Shown: positions 8,342 to 62,406, counted from the first letter of the stretch. The stretch: DNA of 64,000 nucleotides from a virus (UHGV-0117634); one strand, 5' to 3'. The notes: a model not told the origin generated them from the sequence alone. Made by a program: numbers and translations.

Positions 8342-8765
8342 CTTTAATCTCTCTCATTTTGTTAATAGTAAGTCGTGATAATCTTAAGCTTTCTTGTGAA
8401 GAGAAGTCAAGTCCTTTTTCAGACCGTGGGAAGTAATTTCTGTCCCACGTATTCTCTGCATCCTGAAGCAGTTGGGATAGACTATCTAAGTCCGTTCCAT
8501 TTTGCAACTTATTTTTTAAGGTATCTATCAAAAAGATTGTGTCTTTCGCTTTACGTCTTTCTGAAGATATCTCTTTCATGTGCTCAAATACCGAGCACTT
8601 TAAACCTTCGTCGTATCCACTTGATAGTTCTATCTCATGCTGAACATCAACCATTCGACGATGTTGATAAGCATACTCCTTCTGAGCCTCAATGTAAAGT
8701 GCTTCAACTCTTTCTAAAGCTTGGACAAGGTTATTGATATCTGGGTGAACGTACATCCTCTGCAT
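8325..8765 (-). CDS. hypothetical protein
   Basis: ORF track, 146 aa; first gene of minus-strand operon next to divergent region. Confidence 0.5.
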   Translation of the reverse strand: MQRMYVHPDINNLVQALERVEALYIEAQKEYAYQHRRMVDVQHEIELSSGYDEGLKCSVFEHMKEISSERRKAKDTIFLIDTLKNKLQNGTDLDSLSQLLQDAENTWDRNYFPRSEKGLDFSSQESLRLSRLTINKMREIKDENCK

Positions 8766-8937
8766 AATTGCCTCTGTTAAGTATCTATAAAGATTTTAAT
8801 CTCTTATCTTTATGTATGTTATACATATAACTTTAAAGCTTTTTTAAAAGCTATTAAAAATCTTTTGAGACTTTTAAAGAAACTGTATAGTTAATCTATA
8901 AAGGGAGTCTATTAAGATAAAACCCACTTCGAAAAGA

Positions 8938-8962
8938 CTAACACCTTGTCAAGCAGTTTGTC
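8938..8962 (-). promoter_or_regulatory. Tandem CTTGACA(-35-like) motifs in divergent intergenic region
   Basis: plus-strand TTGTCAAG-N4-TTGTCAAC; same tandem motif recurs at 49826-49851. Confidence 0.3.
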
Positions 8963-9025
8963 AACTTGCTTTTTGCAGAAAATTGCTGTAGGGTATTATC
9001 CAGAATGATTTGAGAGGGAGTAAAA

Positions 9026-11725
9026 ATGGACAATGTAGATTTCGAAAAATTACATTTGGTTGGTGATACAGAAACTGATGGGTTGCTCCTTGAGTTTACA
9101 AAAGCACACGTAATGGCTTTCGCAGACTATAAAGATGACAGTGATGAACCTGCTGTGTGGGTTTTCACTGATGAGCCTATTCTTGGTCACAAGTATACAA
9201 AATACATCAAAGGTGGTCTGCGTGAAGGTGTTGAGTTTGCACTGAAAGCTAAACGTCTTTGTATCCACAATGGTCTTGGTTATGACTGGTGGGTGTTTAA
9301 TCACATTGCACCTGACCTGTGGAACTTTGAGAATCCTAAGTGTAAGCCTTGGAGTGACTTCTTTCAGGATTCACTTATCCAATCTCGCGTACAGTGGATG
9401 GATAGAACTACACCAAAAGGTTACAAAGGTGCTCATGGTTTGGCTGCATGGGGTGCTCGTGTTGGTGTTCGTAAACCAGAGATTGAAGAGTGGGGTGTCT
9501 GGAATGCAGAGATTCTTACTCGTGTTGTAGAAGATATTAAGATTAACGCCAAAACTAAACGTGCTCTTGACAATGAGTATCTCAAGCTTAAGAAGTGTGG
9601 CGTGGATACTTATGAAACCTACATGCGAGCTAAAGAAACATCTTTCTGGATGAGTCAGCAAGCTATCAACGGTTGGAAAGCTGATGTAGAGCTTATGCAG
9701 TTCCACGTTAAAGAGCTTGACAAGTTAACTAATGAGTTGGCTGCTGAGGTTGAACCACACCTTCCACCAACTATTAAGACAAAAGGTAAAGTCACAGGTG
9801 AAGAATTTGCCAAGTCTTGGAACGAGTATGTAGATACATTTGGTCACGTTGACGGCTTAAAAAGGATTACCAAGTACCCTAAGACAAAGTATCGTGAACA
9901 GATGCGTGAAGGTGAGTTGAAGCAGTACCCTATTAAGCCATATGGTAAGCCAACTACAAAGATTTTTAATGTTGAGAAACGCAACTGCTACACTCCAACT
10001 AACACGGTCACAAAAGAAGAGTACCCTGAAGGTTTTGTAGCAATGAAAGATGCTCGTGCAGTTTGTAATGAACTGAATGAGAAGATTGGCAAGAAGTGTA
10101 AAGATTGGAAGCCAGTTAAGACTGTGAAAACTGTGAAGTACTACAATGTTCACGTTGTTAATCACTTTGAGTTAGAGTCTAGTCGCTACACTGGTTTGAT
10201 TGATGCACCATTTACACCAATTGAGTTTGAAGTTTCACGAATGACTCAGGTAGCTGTGGTGAAGGATTACTTAAAATCTGTTGGTTGGATTCCTGATGAT
10301 TGGAACTATAAAAAAGATTCTGATGGTCGTCCTATCAAGGTTTGCAGATTCAAAGACAACAAAAAGATGATTCGCAAACATCCTAAGTGGGATGAGATGG
10401 TTGAGCGTTGTGGGTTGAACTATATTGAGCATGAAGGTGTCTATTACATCGAGCATAACTGGTCTGTTAAGAAGTACACAGATGTGCTTGAACCTTGCTT
10501 GATTAGGACTTCACCAAAGCTTACAGAGTCTTCTTATGATACAATCGAAGGTGAGCTTGGACAGAAGATTGCGAAGTACTATACTTTGATGCACCGACGC
10601 AGGACTATTGAGAACTCAAAGGATGATGAGAAAGGTTGGCTGAACCAGATTCGTCCAGATGGTCGTTTGAGTGCAGGTGCAATGGTGTTTGGTACTTCTA
10701 CTGGACGTATGACTCAGTATGGTATTGTAAACGTACCTTCTGGTGCTGCTGTTTACGGTGAGCCAATGAGGGCAGTGTGGATTTGTGAAGAGGGAACCAA
10801 CGTAGTATCTGTTGATATGAACTCTGCACAGCTTGTACTACTCTGTAACTTCATGGGTGATAAAGACTTCACCAAAGCGGTAACAGAGGGTAAAGAAGAG
10901 ATTGAGTTTGTTCGTCAAGAGGATGGAAGATACTACTGCAAACACTTTGACCAGTATCTGAATCCAGAGATTGACAAGTATCTGCGTTATGACTCTGAAA
11001 ACGATTTGTACGTAGTTTACTCAGGGACTGATGCTCACACTCTGAACAGTATCTACTTCAGCCTTAATGATGAGCAAGATATCTTGACTTGTCGTGCTAC
11101 TCAGGATGAGAATCTTCTTCATGAGATTAGCAAGGGACGTAAGAAAGCTAAGAATGGTATCTATGCCCTGTTGTTCGGTGCAGGTGATGAGAAGTTTGCT
11201 AAAACAATTAAAGCAGCAACTACTCAGGAAGGTGCATTGACTAAGCAGACTTACTTTGTGCGTTTACCGAAGATTAAGAAACTGTTAGACAACTTGGAAG
11301 CTGATTTCAAAGCAACTAAGAAAGCACTTGAAGAGGTGTTTGGTAAGACTGCTGCAATCTCTAAAGGTGGTTTTGTGAAGGTTGCTGGGGCTTGGCTGTG
11401 GTGTAAGTCTCCACACAAACTCTTGAACTATTTGTTAATGGGTTCAGAAGCACAAGTTCAGAATGAAGCAATCAACCTTGCATGTCGTCGTATGATTGAT
11501 GAGGGTTTGATGAAGTTGAATGGTCGTAAACCAGCTATTGGTGCTCGCTTACTCTGTGCTTACCACGATGAAACAAGCTGGGAATGTCCAGAGAGCATGA
11601 CAGCAGATGTGAAAGCAGTAACTGACTGGTATTATGGTCAAGCATCTAAGAACCTTGGACTAAGAAAAGAGACACTAGTCACAGGTGCAGGGAAAGTTGG
11701 TAAATCGTGGCTTGAAGTCCACTAA
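9026..11725 (+). CDS. DNA polymerase, family A with 3'-5' exonuclease domain
   Basis: Exo motif DTETDG, motif B KKAKNGIYALLFG, motif C YHDE; 899 aa. Confidence 0.9.
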   Translation: MDNVDFEKLHLVGDTETDGLLLEFTKAHVMAFADYKDDSDEPAVWVFTDEPILGHKYTKYIKGGLREGVEFALKAKRLCIHNGLGYDWWVFNHIAPDLWNFENPKCKPWSDFFQDSLIQSRVQWMDRTTPKGYKGAHGLAAWGARVGVRKPEIEEWGVWNAEILTRVVEDIKINAKTKRALDNEYLKLKKCGVDTYETYMRAKETSFWMSQQAINGWKADVELMQFHVKELDKLTNELAAEVEPHLPPTIKTKGKVTGEEFAKSWNEYVDTFGHVDGLKRITKYPKTKYREQMREGELKQYPIKPYGKPTTKIFNVEKRNCYTPTNTVTKEEYPEGFVAMKDARAVCNELNEKIGKKCKDWKPVKTVKTVKYYNVHVVNHFELESSRYTGLIDAPFTPIEFEVSRMTQVAVVKDYLKSVGWIPDDWNYKKDSDGRPIKVCRFKDNKKMIRKHPKWDEMVERCGLNYIEHEGVYYIEHNWSVKKYTDVLEPCLIRTSPKLTESSYDTIEGELGQKIAKYYTLMHRRRTIENSKDDEKGWLNQIRPDGRLSAGAMVFGTSTGRMTQYGIVNVPSGAAVYGEPMRAVWICEEGTNVVSVDMNSAQLVLLCNFMGDKDFTKAVTEGKEEIEFVRQEDGRYYCKHFDQYLNPEIDKYLRYDSENDLYVVYSGTDAHTLNSIYFSLNDEQDILTCRATQDENLLHEISKGRKKAKNGIYALLFGAGDEKFAKTIKAATTQEGALTKQTYFVRLPKIKKLLDNLEADFKATKKALEEVFGKTAAISKGGFVKVAGAWLWCKSPHKLLNYLLMGSEAQVQNEAINLACRRMIDEGLMKLNGRKPAIGARLLCAYHDETSWECPESMTADVKAVTDWYYGQASKNLGLRKETLVTGAGKVGKSWLEVH

Positions 11726-11786
11726 TAGTGTTGACAAGGTGCTCATGGAAGAGTACCTTATACTATATATTATATAGGAGACTTGT

Positions 11787-14582: not shown

Positions 14583-14786
14583 ATGAAGAAGAACATCTGT
14601 AGAACAGACTATGGTGAAGTGGTCGATGATGACGGAGTAGTTATTTACAGAGTTTGGGCTAATGATTTTTCAACCCTTGTAGAGTCTTTAGATAACTACA
14701 TCAACGGGACTCGTGAAAACGTCAGAGCAACTAATCTTGATTCGTTAATAGACACTTCTCGAAAGCGGAGAAAGAAAGATGAATGA
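14583..14786 (+). CDS. hypothetical protein
   Basis: ORF track, 67 aa. Confidence 0.4.
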   Translation: MKKNICRTDYGEVVDDDGVVIYRVWANDFSTLVESLDNYINGTRENVRATNLDSLIDTSRKRRKKDE

Positions 14787-15078
14787 AGTCTTCGACCCTT
14801 ATGCACCTCAAGATTCTTGGGAGGCTGATAGAGAGGCTGAAATGGAGAGTTATGTCTGTCCAATGGATATAGAAGAGATGAAAGACTTTGTATCTTTCAG
14901 ATTCTCTAAAGAGATTGAGAAGCTAAAACTTTCTCAGGCTCAAGTAGCAACTGTTTGTGAAATCTCACAGAGTCGTGTATCAAATATCATTAACGACCCT
15001 CAAAAGATTTCTTTAGAGTACATGCTTAATGCTTGTACAAAACTTGGTGTAAATTTTAACTTAAGGCTGGCAGATTAA
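14779..15078 (+). CDS. HTH (XRE/Cro-like) DNA-binding protein (putative)
   Basis: C-terminal LSQAQVATVCEISQSRVSNIIN helix-turn-helix-like segment. Confidence 0.5.
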   Translation: MNEVFDPYAPQDSWEADREAEMESYVCPMDIEEMKDFVSFRFSKEIEKLKLSQAQVATVCEISQSRVSNIINDPQKISLEYMLNACTKLGVNFNLRLAD

Positions 15079-42188: not shown

Positions 42189-42264
42189 TGGAGTATCGGA
42201 AGGGACTCGAACCCTCATAAACCTGTTTTGCAGACAGGCACATAACCATTTCTGACACCGACAC
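42189..42264 (-). tRNA. tRNA-Cys (anticodon GCA)
   Basis: Hand-folded cloverleaf: 7-bp acceptor, T-loop TTCGAGT, anticodon loop CTGCAAA, encoded CCA. Confidence 0.75.
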
Positions 42265-42270
42265 ATAATT

Positions 42271-42364
42271 TGGAGGAAGATACCAGACTTGAACTGGTAC
42301 GCCGATTTCTCGGTTACTGGCAGTTTAGCAAACTGCTCCCTTACCTTTTAGGGTTAATCTTCCA
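42271..42364 (-). tRNA. tRNA-Ser (anticodon GCT), class II
   Basis: Acceptor GGAAGAT/ATCTTCC, anticodon loop TTGCTAA, long variable arm, T-loop TTCAAGT, CCA. Confidence 0.7.
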
Positions 42365-43098
42365 TTATTTGTTCAGAGCTTCTTTCATCTCTGGAGTTGC
42401 GATAGTATCAATCACACCAGTTTTACATGAATCATCAAACCAGCTTGGTAGAACATTCGCAAGGAAACCATTAATATTTGTTTTCAGGTATTCTGCAATC
42501 AGTGCTGCTTCATCTGCAATCATCTGAGTTACTTCATTAGCATATGCAGTAATCTTTGCAATACCCTCATTAATTGCTGTAACGGCCTGTGTAGCGAGTT
42601 CAGAGATTGTATCTAGTCCTTGGTCGATTGCATCTTGCAAATCGCTTAGAACGCCATTTACAGCGTCTATGGAGGTATTAATCAAATCCATCGCTTTATT
42701 ACCGTACTCGGTAGCTACGCCCATGATACCGCTAAACGGTGTACATCCAACCTGTTCACCTGCTGCTCCCATAACGTTAGAGTAACCTTTAGCTACTTGC
42801 ATACGTTGTGAAAACTCATCTACAGACTTTTGTCCATACTCAGTAAGTGTACTTGTCGTTGAAGTTGTACTTCCAAGGCTTGTTGTGAAGCTTCCTAATA
42901 AGGCTGTTGTCAGTCCAGCAGCAACTAAAATCTGTTGTGTAGCTGGGTCTGTTACAGAACTAATTGAGTTAACTAATGATTGAGAGGCAGCTATAGTACC
43001 ACCAAGAACTGCTGCACCAGTAATAAGAGGGTTTGAGAAACCATTACCGGTTTTAAGGAGATTAAAAATCTCTTTACTTTGTTCTGTCATCTCTTTCA
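42365..43098 (-). CDS. hypothetical protein embedded in tRNA cluster (Gly/Ala/Thr/Ser-rich N-region, helical C-region)
   Basis: ORF trimmed to internal ATG with AGGTG SD because the track N-terminus overlaps a tRNA; about 244 aa. Confidence 0.5.
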
Positions 43099-43114
43099 TT
43101 ATGCACCTATAAAG

Positions 43115-43191
43115 TTGGTAGCCCATCGGGATTTGAACCCTGTTCTCATGTTTTTCAGACACGCGCTTTAACCATATAAGCTAATTGAGCT
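43115..43191 (-). tRNA. tRNA-Phe (anticodon GAA), atypical D-arm and T-stem
   Basis: Acceptor TAGCTCA/TGGGCTA, anticodon arm CGTGT-CTGAAAA-ACATG, T-loop TTCAAAT; only 3 clean T-stem pairs. Confidence 0.55.
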
Positions 43192-43197
43192 ATTAAA

Positions 43198-43274
43198 TTG
43201 GGGTGACCTACGGGAATCGAACCCGTATAGACCATGTTCACAGCATGGGTCATTATCCATTTATGATAAGGCCA
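43198..43274 (-). tRNA. tRNA-His (anticodon GTG)
   Basis: Anticodon arm CCATG-CTGTGAA-CATGG, T-arm ACGGG-TTCGATT-CCCGT, discriminator C, CCA. Confidence 0.7.
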
Positions 43275-43305
43275 CATTTAAGGACTCTCGTAAGAACCCT
43301 TAGAA

Positions 43306-43381
43306 GTGGCAGCAGTATAAGGATTTGAACCTTAATCTTTCAGCTTCAGAGGCTGGAGCATTGCCAGTTATGCTATACTGC
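43306..43381 (-). tRNA. tRNA-Gln (anticodon CTG)
   Basis: Canonical 76-nt fold; anticodon loop CTCTGAA; T-arm TAAGG-TTCAAAT-CCTTA; CCA. Confidence 0.65.
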
Positions 43382-43387
43382 TAATAT

Positions 43388-43459
43388 TTGGTACTCCATA
43401 TCGGATTCGAACCGATACATAACACAGATTTTAAGTCTGGCCTCTCTGCCAATTGGAGT
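43388..43459 (-). tRNA. tRNA-like gene, atypical (short D region; anticodon loop CTTAAAA, anticodon TAA)
   Basis: 7-bp acceptor TACTCCA/TGGAGTA, T-arm with TTCGAAT, but truncated D-arm and no long variable arm. Confidence 0.45.
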
Positions 43460-43468
43460 AATGGAGCA

Positions 43469-43544
43469 TTGGCGGGGGATGTTGGAATTGAACCAACTTC
43501 TTCGATTTCAAAGACCGAGGTTTTAACCTTGTAAACTAATCCCC
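43469..43544 (-). tRNA. tRNA-Gln (anticodon TTG)
   Basis: Anticodon arm TCGGT-CTTTGAA-ATCGA, T-arm GTTGG-TTCAATT-CCAAC, CCA; A1-C72 mismatch. Confidence 0.7.
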
Positions 43545-43771
43545 TAACTAACTCTTGTAAGAATATATGCGTTATTGCATGTATCTTTATTTTCTGGCAA
43601 CATTGTTTCAAAGATAACTTGCTTTAATTCCAAACCAGCAAAGTTGTAGACAATCTTTCTAACTTCTAATGGGTCAGCTTTCCAGCCAACTCTGATAAAG
43701 AAAGTATCTCCAAATCTCCCTGTTTCAAGCTTGTCATCTTCTGGGTGTTTTTCAACTATGAGTTTAAACAT
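43544..43771 (-). CDS. hypothetical small protein within tRNA cluster
   Basis: 75 aa; AAGGG SD-like sequence upstream; stop abuts tRNA-Gln. Confidence 0.35.
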   Translation of the reverse strand: MFKLIVEKHPEDDKLETGRFGDTFFIRVGWKADPLEVRKIVYNFAGLELKQVIFETMLPENKDTCNNAYILTRVS

Positions 43772-43790
43772 AAGTTACCCTTTTAAATTT

Positions 43791-43867
43791 GGTGCAGAAT
43801 AAGGGATTCGAACCCCTAACTAACAACTTCGTAGGTTGCTGCTCTGTCCATTTGAACTAATTCTGCA
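43791..43867 (-). tRNA. tRNA-Arg (anticodon ACG)
   Basis: Acceptor GCAGAAT/ATTCTGC, anticodon arm GCAAC-CTACGAA-GTTGT, T-arm AGGGG-TTCGAAT-CCCTT, CCA. Confidence 0.75.
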
Positions 43868-57952: not shown

Positions 57953-57961
57953 TTAATATTT

Positions 57962-58011
57962 AGCCCCTTAAAATGGATTCGCTAGAATCTATCTCATAGG
58001 GGCTTTTTATT
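57962..58011 (+). terminator. Candidate terminator after the plus-strand block (AGCCCCT ... AGGGGCT + TTTTTATT)
   Basis: 7-bp stem with a long loop followed by a T-run; weaker than a classical terminator. Confidence 0.35.
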
Positions 58012-58019
58012 GAGTAAAA

Positions 58020-59600
58020 TTTACGAAATTTATATTTTTATAAAATTTGGGATTCACTCCGTTCATCTTGGGTCACCATGATATGTGATAAAATATCTAT
58101 ACCCTTCTAAACACCCTCTCTAAGCATCATCTCTATATAGTATTATATAGTATCTATATAGCCTCTTAGTCCCTAAATAGTGCTCTCTATATAACCCTCT
58201 ATAAAGCCTTCTAAGCCTACCATTAATCAACCCTATACAATCACCTTCCTAGCCTCTTCCTAGCCCCTATAGCCATCTTAATCTCTAGGTTATCTGTGTT
58301 ACTTAACAGTAACCCATTAGGTAAACGATAGTACCCTATATAGCAGAATCACTAGGTATTACTAAGCCTCTATATAGACTGTTATATAACACTAAACAGG
58401 TATTCCCTGTAAAGGCTTATCCTACAAGGTCTAACACGGTACTAACAAGGTATCTTATAAGCCTGTTAATTCCTGTTTTATATAAGATAGTGTATAGATA
58501 GCTATTCAGTTCTATAAAATTTTTATAAAATAGACTAGGTAGGCCACTTTTTAGGTTCTTGGGAGTATCTGAAAAATATCTACAAAGGCTGTATATCTGC
58601 TTGGTAGCCCTTAACAGCCCTGTAACATCCCCTTTGCAAAATCTTAAAATATCATTAACAATCCCTTAACAACTCTCTCAAGCTCTTAACATCTCTTCAG
58701 AGTTCTTAACAGTTTCTTAACAGGACTAGCAAGGGCTTAACAAGTCTGTAATATTGCTTACAAGAGTCTAACAAGTTGCTTATAAGTTGCTAAATAGTTA
58801 AATCTTAAGAGTTATTTTGTTAAGATAATTAACAAGATGCTAACAAGTTCTAAATCTTTTTAACAAGCTATTAACATGGTCACTATCTCTTGGTCTATAG
58901 TTCCCTATCCCTCTTAGTGACTCTTTATAAAGCCCTCTATAAAGCTCTGTATAGCTCTGTATAGCCTCTTCTAAGCTTCTCCCTAGTAACTACACCCCAA
59001 ATACCTGTATAGCTCTTTATAGGGCTTTCTAGGGGCTTATACAGGGACTTCAAAGTGTCTAACAAGCTTTTAACATACCTCTAACAAGGATTTAACAAGG
59101 GGCTAACAAGTCTCTAATAAGCATAACTATGTTGCATTTGTTAAGATTTTGTTAAGAGAATGTAAAGGGGGCTAACTTTTACGTAACTTTATAGCCTCTT
59201 TTACGTAACTTTGAAGTAACTTCATAGCCCCTATAACATGTTTTTTAGTGACTATCAAGCCCTTTTTAGATATTCACAAGATACTAACGAGATGATAAAG
59301 CTTACACCCTTATAAGATTCTTTTAAGGCTCTAGGAAGCTCTATAGAGGGCTTTTAAGAGTGGGTTAATATGATTGGTTAAGTTGAGTTGATAAGCCGTT
59401 ATAGAGCGTTATAGAGCGTTTAAGGGATTGCCCTTCCCTTTCGGGTTATGGGCTTATATTTAAGGGATTGGTAACAATACCAATTAGTTGATTTGATAAG
59501 AGGTTATAGAGTAATCTATAGAGTTATTGCTCTAAATGTCTGGTAAGAGTCTAGAAAGGGATTGTATGAGGATTCGATAGAGTCCTATCTTATAGACGTT
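58020..59600. repeat. 1.6 kb non-coding region of short degenerate direct repeats with a strand-skew switch
   Basis: No ORF of 60 aa or more; repeat families CTATA(A/T)AG, CTTAACA, TAACAAG, CTTCTAAG; tandem CTCTGTATAG x2 and CGTTATAGAG x2; plus strand is G-depleted up to about 59300, then G-rich with inverted motifs. Confidence 0.6.
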
Positions 59601-59622
59601 AAAAAGCCCCATTGAAGGGGCT
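59600..59622 (-). terminator. Rho-independent terminator ending the minus-strand early gene array
   Basis: On minus strand GCCCC-TTCAAT-GGGGC followed by TTTTT; a second GC hairpin at 59647-59661. Confidence 0.6.
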
Positions 59623-59663
59623 TGTATAGGGTCTGGGGCTATTTGCCCCGTTGCGGCGACTTG

Positions 59664-60244: not shown

Positions 60245-60310
60245 TTCTAGTCTCCAGTTTAGGATTGTTGGGGAAGGCCATTCCCTCCCCGTTGATGAGT
60301 ACTTTATAGA
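60245..60310 (-). promoter_or_regulatory. Conserved upstream cassette 2
   Basis: Same core; hairpin GGGGAAGGCCATTCCCTCCCC shows compensatory changes; AGTACT palindrome. Confidence 0.4.
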
Positions 60311-60831
60311 GTTCTGATGATTTCGTCAAGCTCTTTTTCCATATCTTTTACAGATTTTTCGTGTAGTTTAATCATATCATTTAATGCTTGCCCTAACTGT
60401 AAGTTAAAATCACTGTCTTTTGTCTCGCTTAGATAGATGTTTTCTACGTCGTAAAGCTTGCAAGGGTGGCAACCTGTACCCATCGCCATAATCCCATGTG
60501 CCAACGGCATGATATACATGTTATGGGACTTGATAGAGCGCTCATAAGCCATTTTAAAGTGGTTTAACTCTTCTTTTGATGATTTGATGCAATGTTCACA
60601 AAGTTCTGCGACTAGTGCCATAAAATCAGGGAGGATTGTTGCAACAGCTTGCATAAAGTTTTCTGCTGTTACTACCTTAACGTTTTGGTGATGTACATAA
60701 TATTTTTTATCCTCCCCTTTCGTAATGACTGCAAACAACTTGTCATTGCAGCGAAATTCGAAAGTGTCTTTTACTGGCTTGCTCATCACGGCATTGGAAC
60801 GGATATGATTGATAGCTTGAAACTTATTCAT
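60304..60831 (-). CDS. hypothetical protein (early array)
   Basis: ORF track, 175 aa. Confidence 0.5.
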   Translation of the reverse strand: MNKFQAINHIRSNAVMSKPVKDTFEFRCNDKLFAVITKGEDKKYYVHHQNVKVVTAENFMQAVATILPDFMALVAELCEHCIKSSKEELNHFKMAYERSIKSHNMYIMPLAHGIMAMGTGCHPCKLYDVENIYLSETKDSDFNLQLGQALNDMIKLHEKSVKDMEKELDEIIRTL

Positions 60832-60915
60832 TTTTAGATTCTCCAGTTTAGGATTGTTTTATGGCTTGAATAGAACTATACAGAATTACTTAGTGTCTTG
60901 CAAGTACTTTTTCGC
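60832..60915 (-). promoter_or_regulatory. Conserved upstream cassette 3 with candidate promoter TTGCAA-N17-TATAGT
   Basis: Read on minus strand; -35 overlaps the AAGTACTT palindrome. Confidence 0.4.
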
Positions 60916-61028
60916 TTATCTATAAAGAATCTTTTAAGTGAATCCCTTTAGATAAACCCCTCGAACAAATGTACTATTGTCAAGGGGCAATGTCAACAGT
61001 TTTTTCAAAGAATTTTGTAAGTTGTTGA

Positions 61029-61370
61029 TTAGCTTATAAAGATTTTTTCAGGCTTGACGTAGGTTAATGCTTGTTTTTTAAGCAAATCAGACCAAATCAA
61101 AGCGGCAATGTGACTATAGCCCTTTTCTCTTAGTTCCCGCATAGCTTCTTTGCGAGTCTCAAAACGTGTAGCATAGTATTCAGTGTTAAGTGTAGTTTTG
61201 TTCCCTTCATTGTCAACATGCACAACCTGCATTACTTGGAAAGGGCTTACATCTTCCCCCCTGTTCCATTGCTCAAAGTATTTGAGGCATTGCATAGGTG
61301 TCATTTTGTCGCTTACTTGAGTGGACCAAGATGAATTCTCTTTATCAGTAATGACTGTTACGTATGCCAT
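61029..61370 (-). CDS. hypothetical protein (early array)
   Basis: ORF track, 113 aa. Confidence 0.5.
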   Translation of the reverse strand: MAYVTVITDKENSSWSTQVSDKMTPMQCLKYFEQWNRGEDVSPFQVMQVVHVDNEGNKTTLNTEYYATRFETRKEAMRELREKGYSHIAALIWSDLLKKQALTYVKPEKIFIS

Positions 61371-61432
61371 TTTTAGATTCTCCAGTTTAGGATTGTTGGG
61401 GCTTGCTTGCCCCGTTGATAAGTACTTTACTT
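61371..61432 (-). promoter_or_regulatory. Conserved upstream cassette 4
   Basis: Core plus hairpin GGGGCTTGCTTGCCCC plus GTACTTT element. Confidence 0.4.
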
Positions 61433-61452
61433 GTTTTGATTTTCAGTGTCAA

Positions 61453-61683
61453 TCATTTTTCTATGATTATTTCATATTGACCATCGACACTATCAAAATA
61501 AATTCCGTCATCATCTTCTGATTTGAAGTAACATTGTATATCATCGCTTTTTGGGTAGTCAAGCCTTGCAATTTGGCAAGCCTCTATAGCATTTTCTTTA
61601 CTTCCTGTAAACTCTTCAAGTCCTTTGAAGTCCCATTCAGTACCATTTGACAAGGAAAGAATAAGATAGATTGTTGTAAGCAT
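61453..61683 (-). CDS. hypothetical small protein (early array)
   Basis: ORF track, 76 aa; AGAGG SD; different upstream element. Confidence 0.45.
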   Translation of the reverse strand: MLTTIYLILSLSNGTEWDFKGLEEFTGSKENAIEACQIARLDYPKSDDIQCYFKSEDDDGIYFDSVDGQYEIIIEK

Positions 61684-62304: not shown

Positions 62305-62365
62305 TTTAGAATCTCCAGTTTAGGATTGTTGGGGCTTGCTTGCCCCGTTGATGAGTACTTTAATA
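62305..62365 (-). promoter_or_regulatory. Conserved upstream cassette 5
   Basis: Core plus hairpin GGGGCTTGCTTGCCCC plus GAGTACTTT. Confidence 0.4.
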
Positions 62366-62387
62366 TATCTAAAATCAGTGTCAAACG

Positions 62388-62406
62388 TTTTTTTTTTTTT
62401 TTTTTT
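62388..62406. repeat. Homopolymeric T19 tract (A19 on the coding strand) overlapping the stop of 62405..62806
   Basis: 19 consecutive T directly visible. Confidence 0.8.

Follow-up and report, generated by a model that had tools for sequence, protein, structure and literature searches.

A second TTGACA hexamer in the spacer of three predicted leftward sigma-70 promoters of a Mooglevirus genome

At three intergenic sites in the window (the whole stretch of viral DNA analysed here, UHGV-0117634, 64,000 nucleotides), the minus strand carries two perfect copies of TTGACA in tandem, followed by a hexamer of the form TAnnnT. Our reading, which we favour with modest confidence, is that each of these sites, termed R1, R2 and R3, is a leftward promoter for the host sigma-70 RNA polymerase in which the distal TTGACA serves as the -35 element and the proximal TTGACA as an extra docking site for sigma-70 region 4. 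The first part of this reading, a sigma-70 promoter with the distal box as its -35, is well supported, since the layout, the spacing rule, the signature of the -10, the orientation of the genes and the presence of the distal register in distant genera all point to it. Earlier papers and annotations record just the distal box, and the doubled -35 promoter, which, unusual as it is, we would still class as a variant of the ordinary host-type promoter, is apparently undescribed. R1, R2 and R3 stand at the start of major transcription units or within them, and few other non-coding stretches of the genome are as well conserved.

The window derives from a Mooglevirus, with ~99% identity to Shigella phage Sf16; Mooglevirus belongs to the Ounavirinae, the Felix O1-like myophages of ~88 kb. 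Among ~260 related records, identity falls to ~79% in Felixounavirus and lower in Erwinia and Pectobacterium phages. The genes of the window are laid out in four units, as in Felix O1:

ends at 8765, leftward: unit 1, replication and nucleotide metabolism
starts at 9026, rightward: unit 2, with the DNA polymerase first
starts at 49698, leftward: unit 3, tRNA and structural genes
from 49946, rightward: unit 4

The Felix O1 genome paper placed divergent promoters between genes 96/97 and 40/41, with P41 as the sole promoter candidate there; it described a phage without an RNA polymerase and without a known sigma modifier or polymerase-modifying protein, and its authors stated the timing of transcription to be unsolved (PMC3185647). 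Their RT-PCR classes are noisy, and differ among the genes downstream of R1, R2 and R3 (PMC3185647). No start-site or RNA-seq data for Felix O1-like or Moogle-like phages were found in the literature searched. Cumulative GC skew was considered as an indicator of the origin and rejected, given that the skew merely tracks the direction of transcription. The 25 tRNA genes are clustered on the minus strand at 42189-47673 (ARAGORN), a weak extra Rfam tRNA match at 46689-46763 is absent from the ARAGORN list, and strong TTGACA promoters are found in the area of the cluster at 47820, 47730 and 46165.

An earlier note on this DNA had proposed that each of two divergent intergenic regions carries two closely spaced copies of one octamer, acting perhaps as tandem -35 elements or as binding sites for a shared regulator. 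The two regions, which are 96-99% identical to those of Mooglevirus phages (Sf16 and E. coli phage 3HA14), are indeed divergent, lying between 8765 (minus) and 9026 (plus) and between 49698 (minus) and 49946 (plus). The pairing is also real, but in each region only one copy of the octamer is exact, the other matching at 7/8 positions. In region 1 (ccTTGTCAAGcagtTTGTCAACttgc), the exact octamer TTGTCAAG is at 8946-8953 and the 7/8 copy TTGTCAAC at 8958-8965, so that the span of 8938-8962 first given contains the copies except for the last 3 nt of the second. In region 2 (cgTTGTCAAGaggaATGTCAAGt), TTGTCAAG is at 49829-49836 and the 7/8 copy ATGTCAAG at 49841-49848. What is shared is the unit TGTCAA (TTGACA on the minus strand), present twice at 12 bp from start to start in both R1 and R2. 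A plus-strand -35 reading (TTGTCA, 5/6) was rejected, there being no -10 at 16-18 bp in R1 or R2, and a literature text search for TTGACAAAG returned primers only.

Over the whole window, TTGTCAAG occurs 14 times against 4.8 ± 2.3 expected, with 0/100 shuffles reaching 14, although the majority of copies are inside genes. For the tandem TGTCAA-N5-9-TGTCAA, 0.16 occurrences were expected and 3 are present, a count that 0/100 shuffles reached. A chance origin of the three perfect tandems is excluded. With one mismatch allowed (5/6 plus 6/6) the window holds 9 tandems against 4.1 expected, which is no clear enrichment, and it holds 7 instances of TTGACA-N4-6-TAnnnT against 4.2 expected, none of them intergenic besides R1-R3. 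All three perfect tandems are intergenic and on the same strand as the downstream gene. The third, R3 (60978-60996, 13 bp spacing), which the earlier note had missed, lies between the minus-strand genes 61029..61370 and 60304..60831; since this site is not divergent, the motif is not bound to divergent regions or to divergent promoters.

The elements of the three sites are these:

8959-8964, minus strand: R1 distal TTGACA, proposed -35, 18 bp upstream of TAGTCT; invariant in 10 unique orthologs
8947-8952, minus strand: R1 proximal TTGACA, about -24 to -19; invariant in 10 unique orthologs
8935-8940, minus strand: R1 predicted -10, TAGTCT, preceded by TGt (extended -10)
49842-49847, minus strand: R2 distal TTGACA, proposed -35, 17 bp upstream of TAGCCT
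49830-49835, minus strand: R2 proximal TTGACA, about -23 to -18; invariant in all orthologs
49819-49824, minus strand: R2 predicted -10, TAGCCT, with a predicted start near 49812
60991-60996, minus strand: R3 distal TTGACA, proposed -35, 17 bp upstream of TACATT
60978-60983, minus strand: R3 proximal TTGACA, about -22 to -17, 13 bp from the distal box; invariant in 14 orthologs
60968-60973, minus strand: R3 predicted -10, TACATT, placed by pattern match and alignment

Read along the minus strand, R1 is aaaaagcaag TTGACA aactgc TTGACA aggtgt TAGTCT, R2 is aaaaaatttac TTGACA ttcctc TTGACA acgtg TAGCCT, and R3 is gaaaaaactg TTGACA ttgcccc TTGACA atag TACATT. The common layout is an A-tract, the distal TTGACA, 17-18 bp and TAnnnT. 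The distal box is 18, 17 and 17 bp from the -10 (R1, R2 and R3) despite inner gaps of 6+6, 6+5 and 7+4, while the proximal box lies within the spacer, 4-6 bp from the -10 and at about -24 to -17. Each distal box is immediately preceded by an UP-like A-tract, AAAAAGCAAG in R1, AAAAAATTTAC in R2 and GAAAAAACTG in R3; the A-runs are conserved in orthologs and agree in sequence with an AAAAAARNR-like element at about -46 to -38. TG precedes the -10 in R1 (TGtTAGTCT) and abuts the hexamer in R2 (gTGTAGCCT); R3 has none.

All three distal boxes match the sigma-70 -35 consensus perfectly, and the T-12, A-11 and T-7 of a sigma-70 -10 are found at 17 ± 1 bp from the distal box but not from the proximal box, beyond which the sequence at 17 bp is AAGTGG (R1), GGGGTT (R3) and TACTTA (R2, not conserved). 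The proposal of tandem -35 elements thus stands in part: the minus-strand copies are the exact sigma-70 -35 consensus, are aimed at downstream minus-strand genes, and show conservation that ends precisely at the hexamer borders, but the copies are not equivalent, as the distal one alone is 17-18 bp from the conserved TAnnnT. The -10s match the consensus at just 3-4/6 positions, and a standard promoter scan missed R1-R3 because of this. The window holds many single TTGACA-16/18-TAnnnT promoters, among which the tandem ones have the weakest -10s (3/6 vs a mean of ~4.1). R1-R3 are all aimed at minus-strand genes ~130-210 bp downstream: the predicted targets are the ORF97-like gene with the replication and nucleotide-metabolism unit for R1, the DUF5681 gene 49330..49698 for R2, and the gene 60304..60831 for R3. 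Transcription from R1 would start near 8928, giving the transcript 5' end GAAGTGGGTTTTATCT, and that from R3 is predicted to start near 60961, with the 5' end GAGGGGTTTATCT. The R1 distal site is annotated in silico as a promoter in phage ASO1B, and the R2 distal box is the counterpart of the in-silico promoter P41 of Felix O1 (PMC3185647).

Four further promoters adjoin these sites:

8966-8994, plus strand: DNA-polymerase promoter, TTGCTT (8966-8971)-17-TAGGGT (8989-8994), divergent
49861-49889, plus strand: first rightward promoter of region 2, TTGCAA (49861-66)-17-TATGGA (49884-89)
49873-49901, plus strand: second rightward promoter of region 2, TTGACT (49873-78)-17-TACCAT (49896-901)
60875-60903, minus strand: ordinary promoter, TTGCAA-17-TATAGT, ~95 bp downstream of R3

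The DNA-polymerase promoter stands back to back with the R1 distal box across a 1 bp gap; in its orthologs CTTGCTTTTT is invariant and TAnnGT at 17 bp is conserved, whereas the alternative proposed by the scan tool, TTTGCA-16-TATTAT, is not conserved. The two rightward promoters of region 2 (49861..49901) are complete, overlap at 12 bp from one another, and are nearly invariant in orthologs.

To assess conservation we aligned upstream orthologs from isolates and IMG/VR contigs, which gave 10, 14 and 14 unique sequences for R1, R2 and R3. Ignoring relatedness between the sequences, 35/36 hexamer columns are invariant against 4/19 inter-hexamer columns (Fisher p = 5e-9), and the other columns from -25 to +40 are invariant at 127/203 (p = 9e-6 against the hexamers, relatedness again ignored). 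The sole exception in the R3 distal box is a single TTGACG among the 14 orthologs. Between the boxes, 4-5 nt vary at R1 and 5-6 of the 6 positions at R2, and 15 further R2 orthologs from metagenomes keep both hexamers while adding new inter-hexamer variants. The central A of the hexamers is never replaced by T, and the bases next to each hexamer are variable; the conserved unit is therefore the asymmetric TTGACA rather than the near-palindrome CTTGWCAAG. In every ortholog set the -10 keeps its first T, its A and its last T, and varies in its interior: position 3 is G or A at R1, the forms at R2 are TAGCCT, TAGGCT, TAAGTT and TAGTGT, and those at R3 are TACATT, TAACTT, TAGATT and TAATGT. Fixed ends around a variable interior read as the signature of a sigma-70 -10, and the alignments indicate that the proximal box is under selection. 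Both 3HA14 and Felix O1 contain exactly three perfect tandems, at the same three loci.

Of the more distant Ounavirinae, Erwinia phage M7 (Kolesnikvirus) reads TTGACA-17-TACATT at R1, with one box there and one at R2. Pectobacterium phage Wc4-1 has TTGACA-N8-TTTACA-tgc-TAGGCT at R1, with a distal spacing of 17 and a degenerate box in the spacer, and it too has just one box at R2. Since both phages retain the distal register, this is the ancestral promoter core; the perfect second box at R1-R3 is a feature of the clade of Felixounavirus and Mooglevirus. M7 does have one perfect tandem elsewhere, TTGACA-ttccac-TTGACA-ggggc-TAAAGT, with a distal spacing of 17, which is aimed into a terminal non-coding repeat region (L007, 41700-42694).

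The same design is found outside this group. Scanning IMG/VR for TTGACA-N6/7-TTGACA-N4/6-TAnnnT gave at least 120 matches; ~1/3 of the matches listed are one orthologous site in uncultured T4-like phages, an assignment that rests on gp23, UvsW and gp55 matches, and the singletons are probably due to chance. One match near-identical to the Felix R2 core (L140) lies within an ORF and was left out. In these T4-like phages the site occupies the ~100 bp that separate a small ORF from the late-sigma gene g55, on the upstream side of g55 and next to uvsW; it is conserved, of sigma-70 promoter type and antisense to all neighbouring genes, with no ORF downstream; examples are L083 2211-2239 and ~40 other IMG/VR loci among the matches listed (such as L084, L089 and L116). 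In order to remove the ascertainment bias of the pattern scan, we used protein similarity to collect the sequences upstream of 80 g55 genes and took the -10 and the conserved start region as fixed points; this left 48 unique sites, as follows:

both hexamers (at least 5/6 each): 26/48
proximal hexamer only (4-6 bp from the -10, none at 17 bp): 10/48
canonical hexamer only: 7/48
neither hexamer: 5/48

A hexamer of at least 5/6 stands 3-7 bp upstream of the -10 in 36/48. The distal box is 17-18 bp from the -10 and the proximal box shifts by ±1, and the canonical-only sites have near-consensus -10s (5.4/6 vs 4.0-4.5 in the other states). Among cultured phages, Methylophilales phage Melnitz has TTGCTT-5-TTGACA-6-TATATT, and Prochlorococcus phage P-HM1 has the canonical form. 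Recurrence of the design in this unrelated T4-like group points to RNA polymerase, rather than a lineage-specific regulator, as the reader.

The steps we envisage at such a promoter begin with an UP-like element in the A-tract at about -46 to -40. The distal TTGACA would be the working -35, with a weak TAnnnT -10 lying 17-18 bp on, and transcription would start ~7 nt downstream of the -10 and run into a conserved AT-rich leader. The proximal box would not be the -35 of a second productive promoter; it would be an additional docking site on roughly the same helix face, read by sigma-70 region 4 in a separate docking event, and might raise the capture of RNA polymerase where the -10 is weak, or else hold the polymerase in a second, non-opening register. 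In a single canonical open complex, sigma region 4 cannot contact a box that is 4-6 bp from the -10. Because it does not fit there, the proximal box would have to act in a separate binding event, for which, with a box so placed, we know of no direct precedent. Region 4 nevertheless seems the likeliest reader, since the conservation is bounded by the hexamer, the position of the box floats, and the design recurs in phages of other hosts. A tie between the proximal box and weak -10s in both phage groups is suggestive only. Against this model, an independent DNA-binding factor would explain the 10 T4-like sites with only a proximal box at least equally well, and the T4-like promoter runs antisense to its neighbours. 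A bolder version, of which we are decidedly doubtful, is that TTGACA 4-6 bp upstream of a -10 is an unrecognised element read by RNA polymerase through a non-canonical docking of sigma-70 region 4, possibly freed from the beta-flap by a phage factor as in lambda Q complexes. Such an element might work in the absence of a canonical -35, as the proximal-only sites suggest, and key phage promoters, possibly ones that prime replication, would then stay active while -35-dependent ones are off.

A different explanation, unlikely in our judgement but deserving real weight, is that a phage or host DNA-binding protein uses the hexamer pair, or the proximal box by itself, as its operator and switches the three promoters during infection. 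The candidate binder is the only annotated transcription regulator:

14779-15078, plus strand: 99-aa Xre-type HTH protein, homolog of Felix O1 ORF85 (Pfam HTH_3, E = 2.8e-8; PHROG 1373)

An operator would account for a proximal box that is conserved where RNA polymerase normally reads no sequence, for the proximal-only sites of T4-like phages, and for the unusual leaders common to all three sites, which suggest co-regulation. Felix O1 and Mooglevirus (Felix O1 and 3HA14 were checked), with tandems at all three sites, have the HTH_3 gene, which was not found in M7 or Wc4-1, both without tandems at R1 and R2; M7, however, has its perfect tandem elsewhere without the HTH gene, and the design recurs in T4-like phages of other hosts. 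Moreover, what is conserved is precisely two sigma-70 -35 hexamers, and a direct repeat with a spacing of 11-13 bp, an asymmetric centre and variable flanks is a poor fit to an Xre-type dimer: the symmetric inverted half-sites of an Xre/Cro-type operator are absent from R1-R3, and better dimer targets are found in the leaders (AGATATC-N6-GATATCT and TATGTATaacATACATA). Comparison of the HTH protein with PDB and PHROGs returned a generic Xre-type match that gives no binding specificity.

We regard it as improbable that each site instead combines two productive sigma-70 promoters, each with one TTGACA as its -35, that overlap with a 12-13 bp shift of register and give two starts. Such a pair does exist on the plus strand of region 2, at 12 bp apart, and the R2 proximal box has TACTTA at 17 bp, but this hexamer ends in A and is lost by indel in several orthologs (AAAACACTTAG). 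At R1 the sequences 16-18 bp from the proximal box (GAAGTG, AAGTGG and AGTGGG) and at R3 GGGGTT are fully conserved, and these registers lack the essential A at -11 and T at -7, so that the explanation is rejected at both sites. That the second box was left by an ancient 12-bp duplication of the -35 region and has no function is more improbable still: the two 12-mers are alike (GTTGACAAACTG and CTTGACAAGGTG) and the intergenic regions are highly conserved overall, yet the bases between and beside the hexamers vary freely while 35/36 hexamer columns are fixed. The same pattern is seen at all three paralogous sites, across both genera and among the 15 metagenome variants, and the independent T4-like site has a hexamer of at least 5/6 at 3-7 bp upstream of the -10 in 36/48 cases. 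Hardly credible is a reading in which the plus-strand TGTCA repeats form a pho-box-like or OmpR/PhoB-family site that activates the rightward promoters. The consensus of the PhoB box is CTGTCATAWAWCTGTCAY, which the TGTCA core and the direct repeats resemble, but the period is 12-13 bp and not 11, outside the 10-11 bp of such sites; R1 and R2 lie at different distances from the rightward -10s and do not overlap the rightward -35s; R3 has no rightward promoter at all; and all copies are oriented with the leftward genes, an anatomy that largely refutes the reading. We also compared the consensus sequences of sigma-E, sigma-32, sigma-54 and sigma-28, and those of host regulators (CRP, FNR, LexA, DnaA, PhoB and others), and none seems to fit.

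The promoter reading that we favour can be set beside known systems. R1-R3 have the A-tract, TTGACA, 17-18 bp spacer, TAnnnT and orientation of canonical sigma-70 promoters with an UP element, such as the strong early ones of coliphages, but differ in carrying a second perfect TTGACA in the spacer, conserved equally, and in their weak (3-4/6) -10s. At lambda PR', an extra -35-like TTGACT is used by sigma region 4 in the paused complex on which Q is loaded. This is the nearest conceptual precedent, with a second -35-type hexamer at a very short distance from a -10-type element; the extra element of PR', however, is downstream of the -35, in the transcribed region, 1 bp from the -10-like pause site and dependent on Q, whereas the proximal box of R1-R3 is upstream of the real -10 by 4-6 bp, and we identified no Q-like gene or pause element. 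Lambda CII and P22 C1 (TTGC-N6-TTGC) and the T4 MotA box likewise place short repeats or a box between -35 and -20, to be read by a phage factor, but in the CII sites the repeats recur every 10 bp around a poor -35, and the MotA box is TGCTTtA at -30, while R1-R3 have a period of 12-13 bp and boxes that are the sigma-70 consensus itself, and so belong to neither type. No CII, MotA or AsiA homologs are annotated in Felix O1 or 3HA14. Two polymerase registers within about one helical turn are found at gal P1/P2 and in the region 2 rightward pair, as here, but at R1-R3 one register alone has a -10. A known effect of spacer sequence is the sensing of position -18 by sigma R451 (Singh et al. 2011, PMC3130263), with a preference of T>A>C>G and TTT nearby (PMC3130263); R1-R3 have A, A or C at -18, and what is conserved in them is the full TTGACA.

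The leaders that follow the tandem promoters are ~110-160 nt long, AT-rich and highly conserved, two of them being:

8766-8927, minus strand: R1 leader, ~160 nt, AT-rich and rich in CTWWWWAG
49699-49811, minus strand: R2 leader, with the highest density of CTWWWWAG in the window

The CTWWWWAG octamers (CTTTAAAG, CTTAAAAG, CTATAAAG and CTTTATAG) reach a density of 14-39 per kb in the leaders (8766-8940, 49699-49825 and 60832-60975) vs 1.1 per kb window-wide, and of ~11 per kb at 57960-59660, these being the four densest places in the window. The last of them is a 1.7-kb non-coding region between convergent unit ends, containing the repeats ctataaag, ctatatag, cttaacag and ctaacaag, which could be the terminus of the genome, an origin or a packaging region; its M7 equivalent is entered directly by the tandem-TTGACA promoter of that phage. 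Within the R1 leader, at 8790-8870 of the minus strand, there are the perfect palindromes AGCTTTTAAAAAAGCT and TATGTATaacATACATA, the latter with a compensatory change to ACGTATagaATACGT in Felix O1-type phages; these could be RNA hairpins or operator-like inverted repeats. The R2 leader contains the inverted repeat AGATATC-N6-GATATCT (49745-49765), which is unchanged in 14/14 unique orthologs and is the sort of sequence that a dimeric HTH protein would be expected to bind. A start-region motif, TTCGArGkGGGTTT(T)ATCT, is common to R1 and R3. At R3, a stretch of ~60 nt downstream of the promoter (60905-60965, minus strand; GAGGGGTTTATCT...CTTTATAGATAAGC, with a possible stem GTTTATCT/AGATAAGC) is ~95% identical between Mooglevirus and Felixounavirus, when the adjacent protein (60304..60831) is just ~50% identical. 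We found no credible small ORFs in the three leaders, and over the whole window tRNAs alone pass the gathering threshold of the Rfam covariance models, with no match in a leader.

Judged by their leaders, start motif, palindromes and the conservation at R3, R1-R3 form a distinct module. Promoters associated with replication origins include T7 phi1.1A/1.1B, with an AT-rich region, and T4 oriF at uvsY, where, as at R1-R3, conserved non-coding DNA rich in A and T comes after the promoter. The polymerase and primase/helicase genes flank R1, and the T4-like counterpart adjoins uvsW; at R1-R3, on the other hand, ordinary genes follow, and to call them origin-type promoters by this comparison is speculative. 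A second consensus -35 in the spacer, in two unrelated phage families, hints at modes of polymerase engagement beyond the textbook models; were the proximal box a modest tuner of strength, it would still be useful for promoter annotation and for the engineering of therapeutic Ounavirinae phages.

Elsewhere in the window, on the minus strand at 61400-61460 and 62330-62390, early-region promoters of the form TTGACA-16/17-TAAAGT are each followed directly by a 5' hairpin, ATCAACGGGGCAAGCAAGCCCC, and these units of promoter and hairpin are the counterparts of the Felix O1 39-bp repeats. Finally, the 11-mer TTGACAAGGTG of the R1 proximal box is also the -35 region of two single promoters, at 11731-11760 (plus strand) downstream of the polymerase gene and at 8754 (minus strand) of the 3HA14 record upstream of nrdD, a recurrence that suggests promoter duplication or a favoured -35 context.
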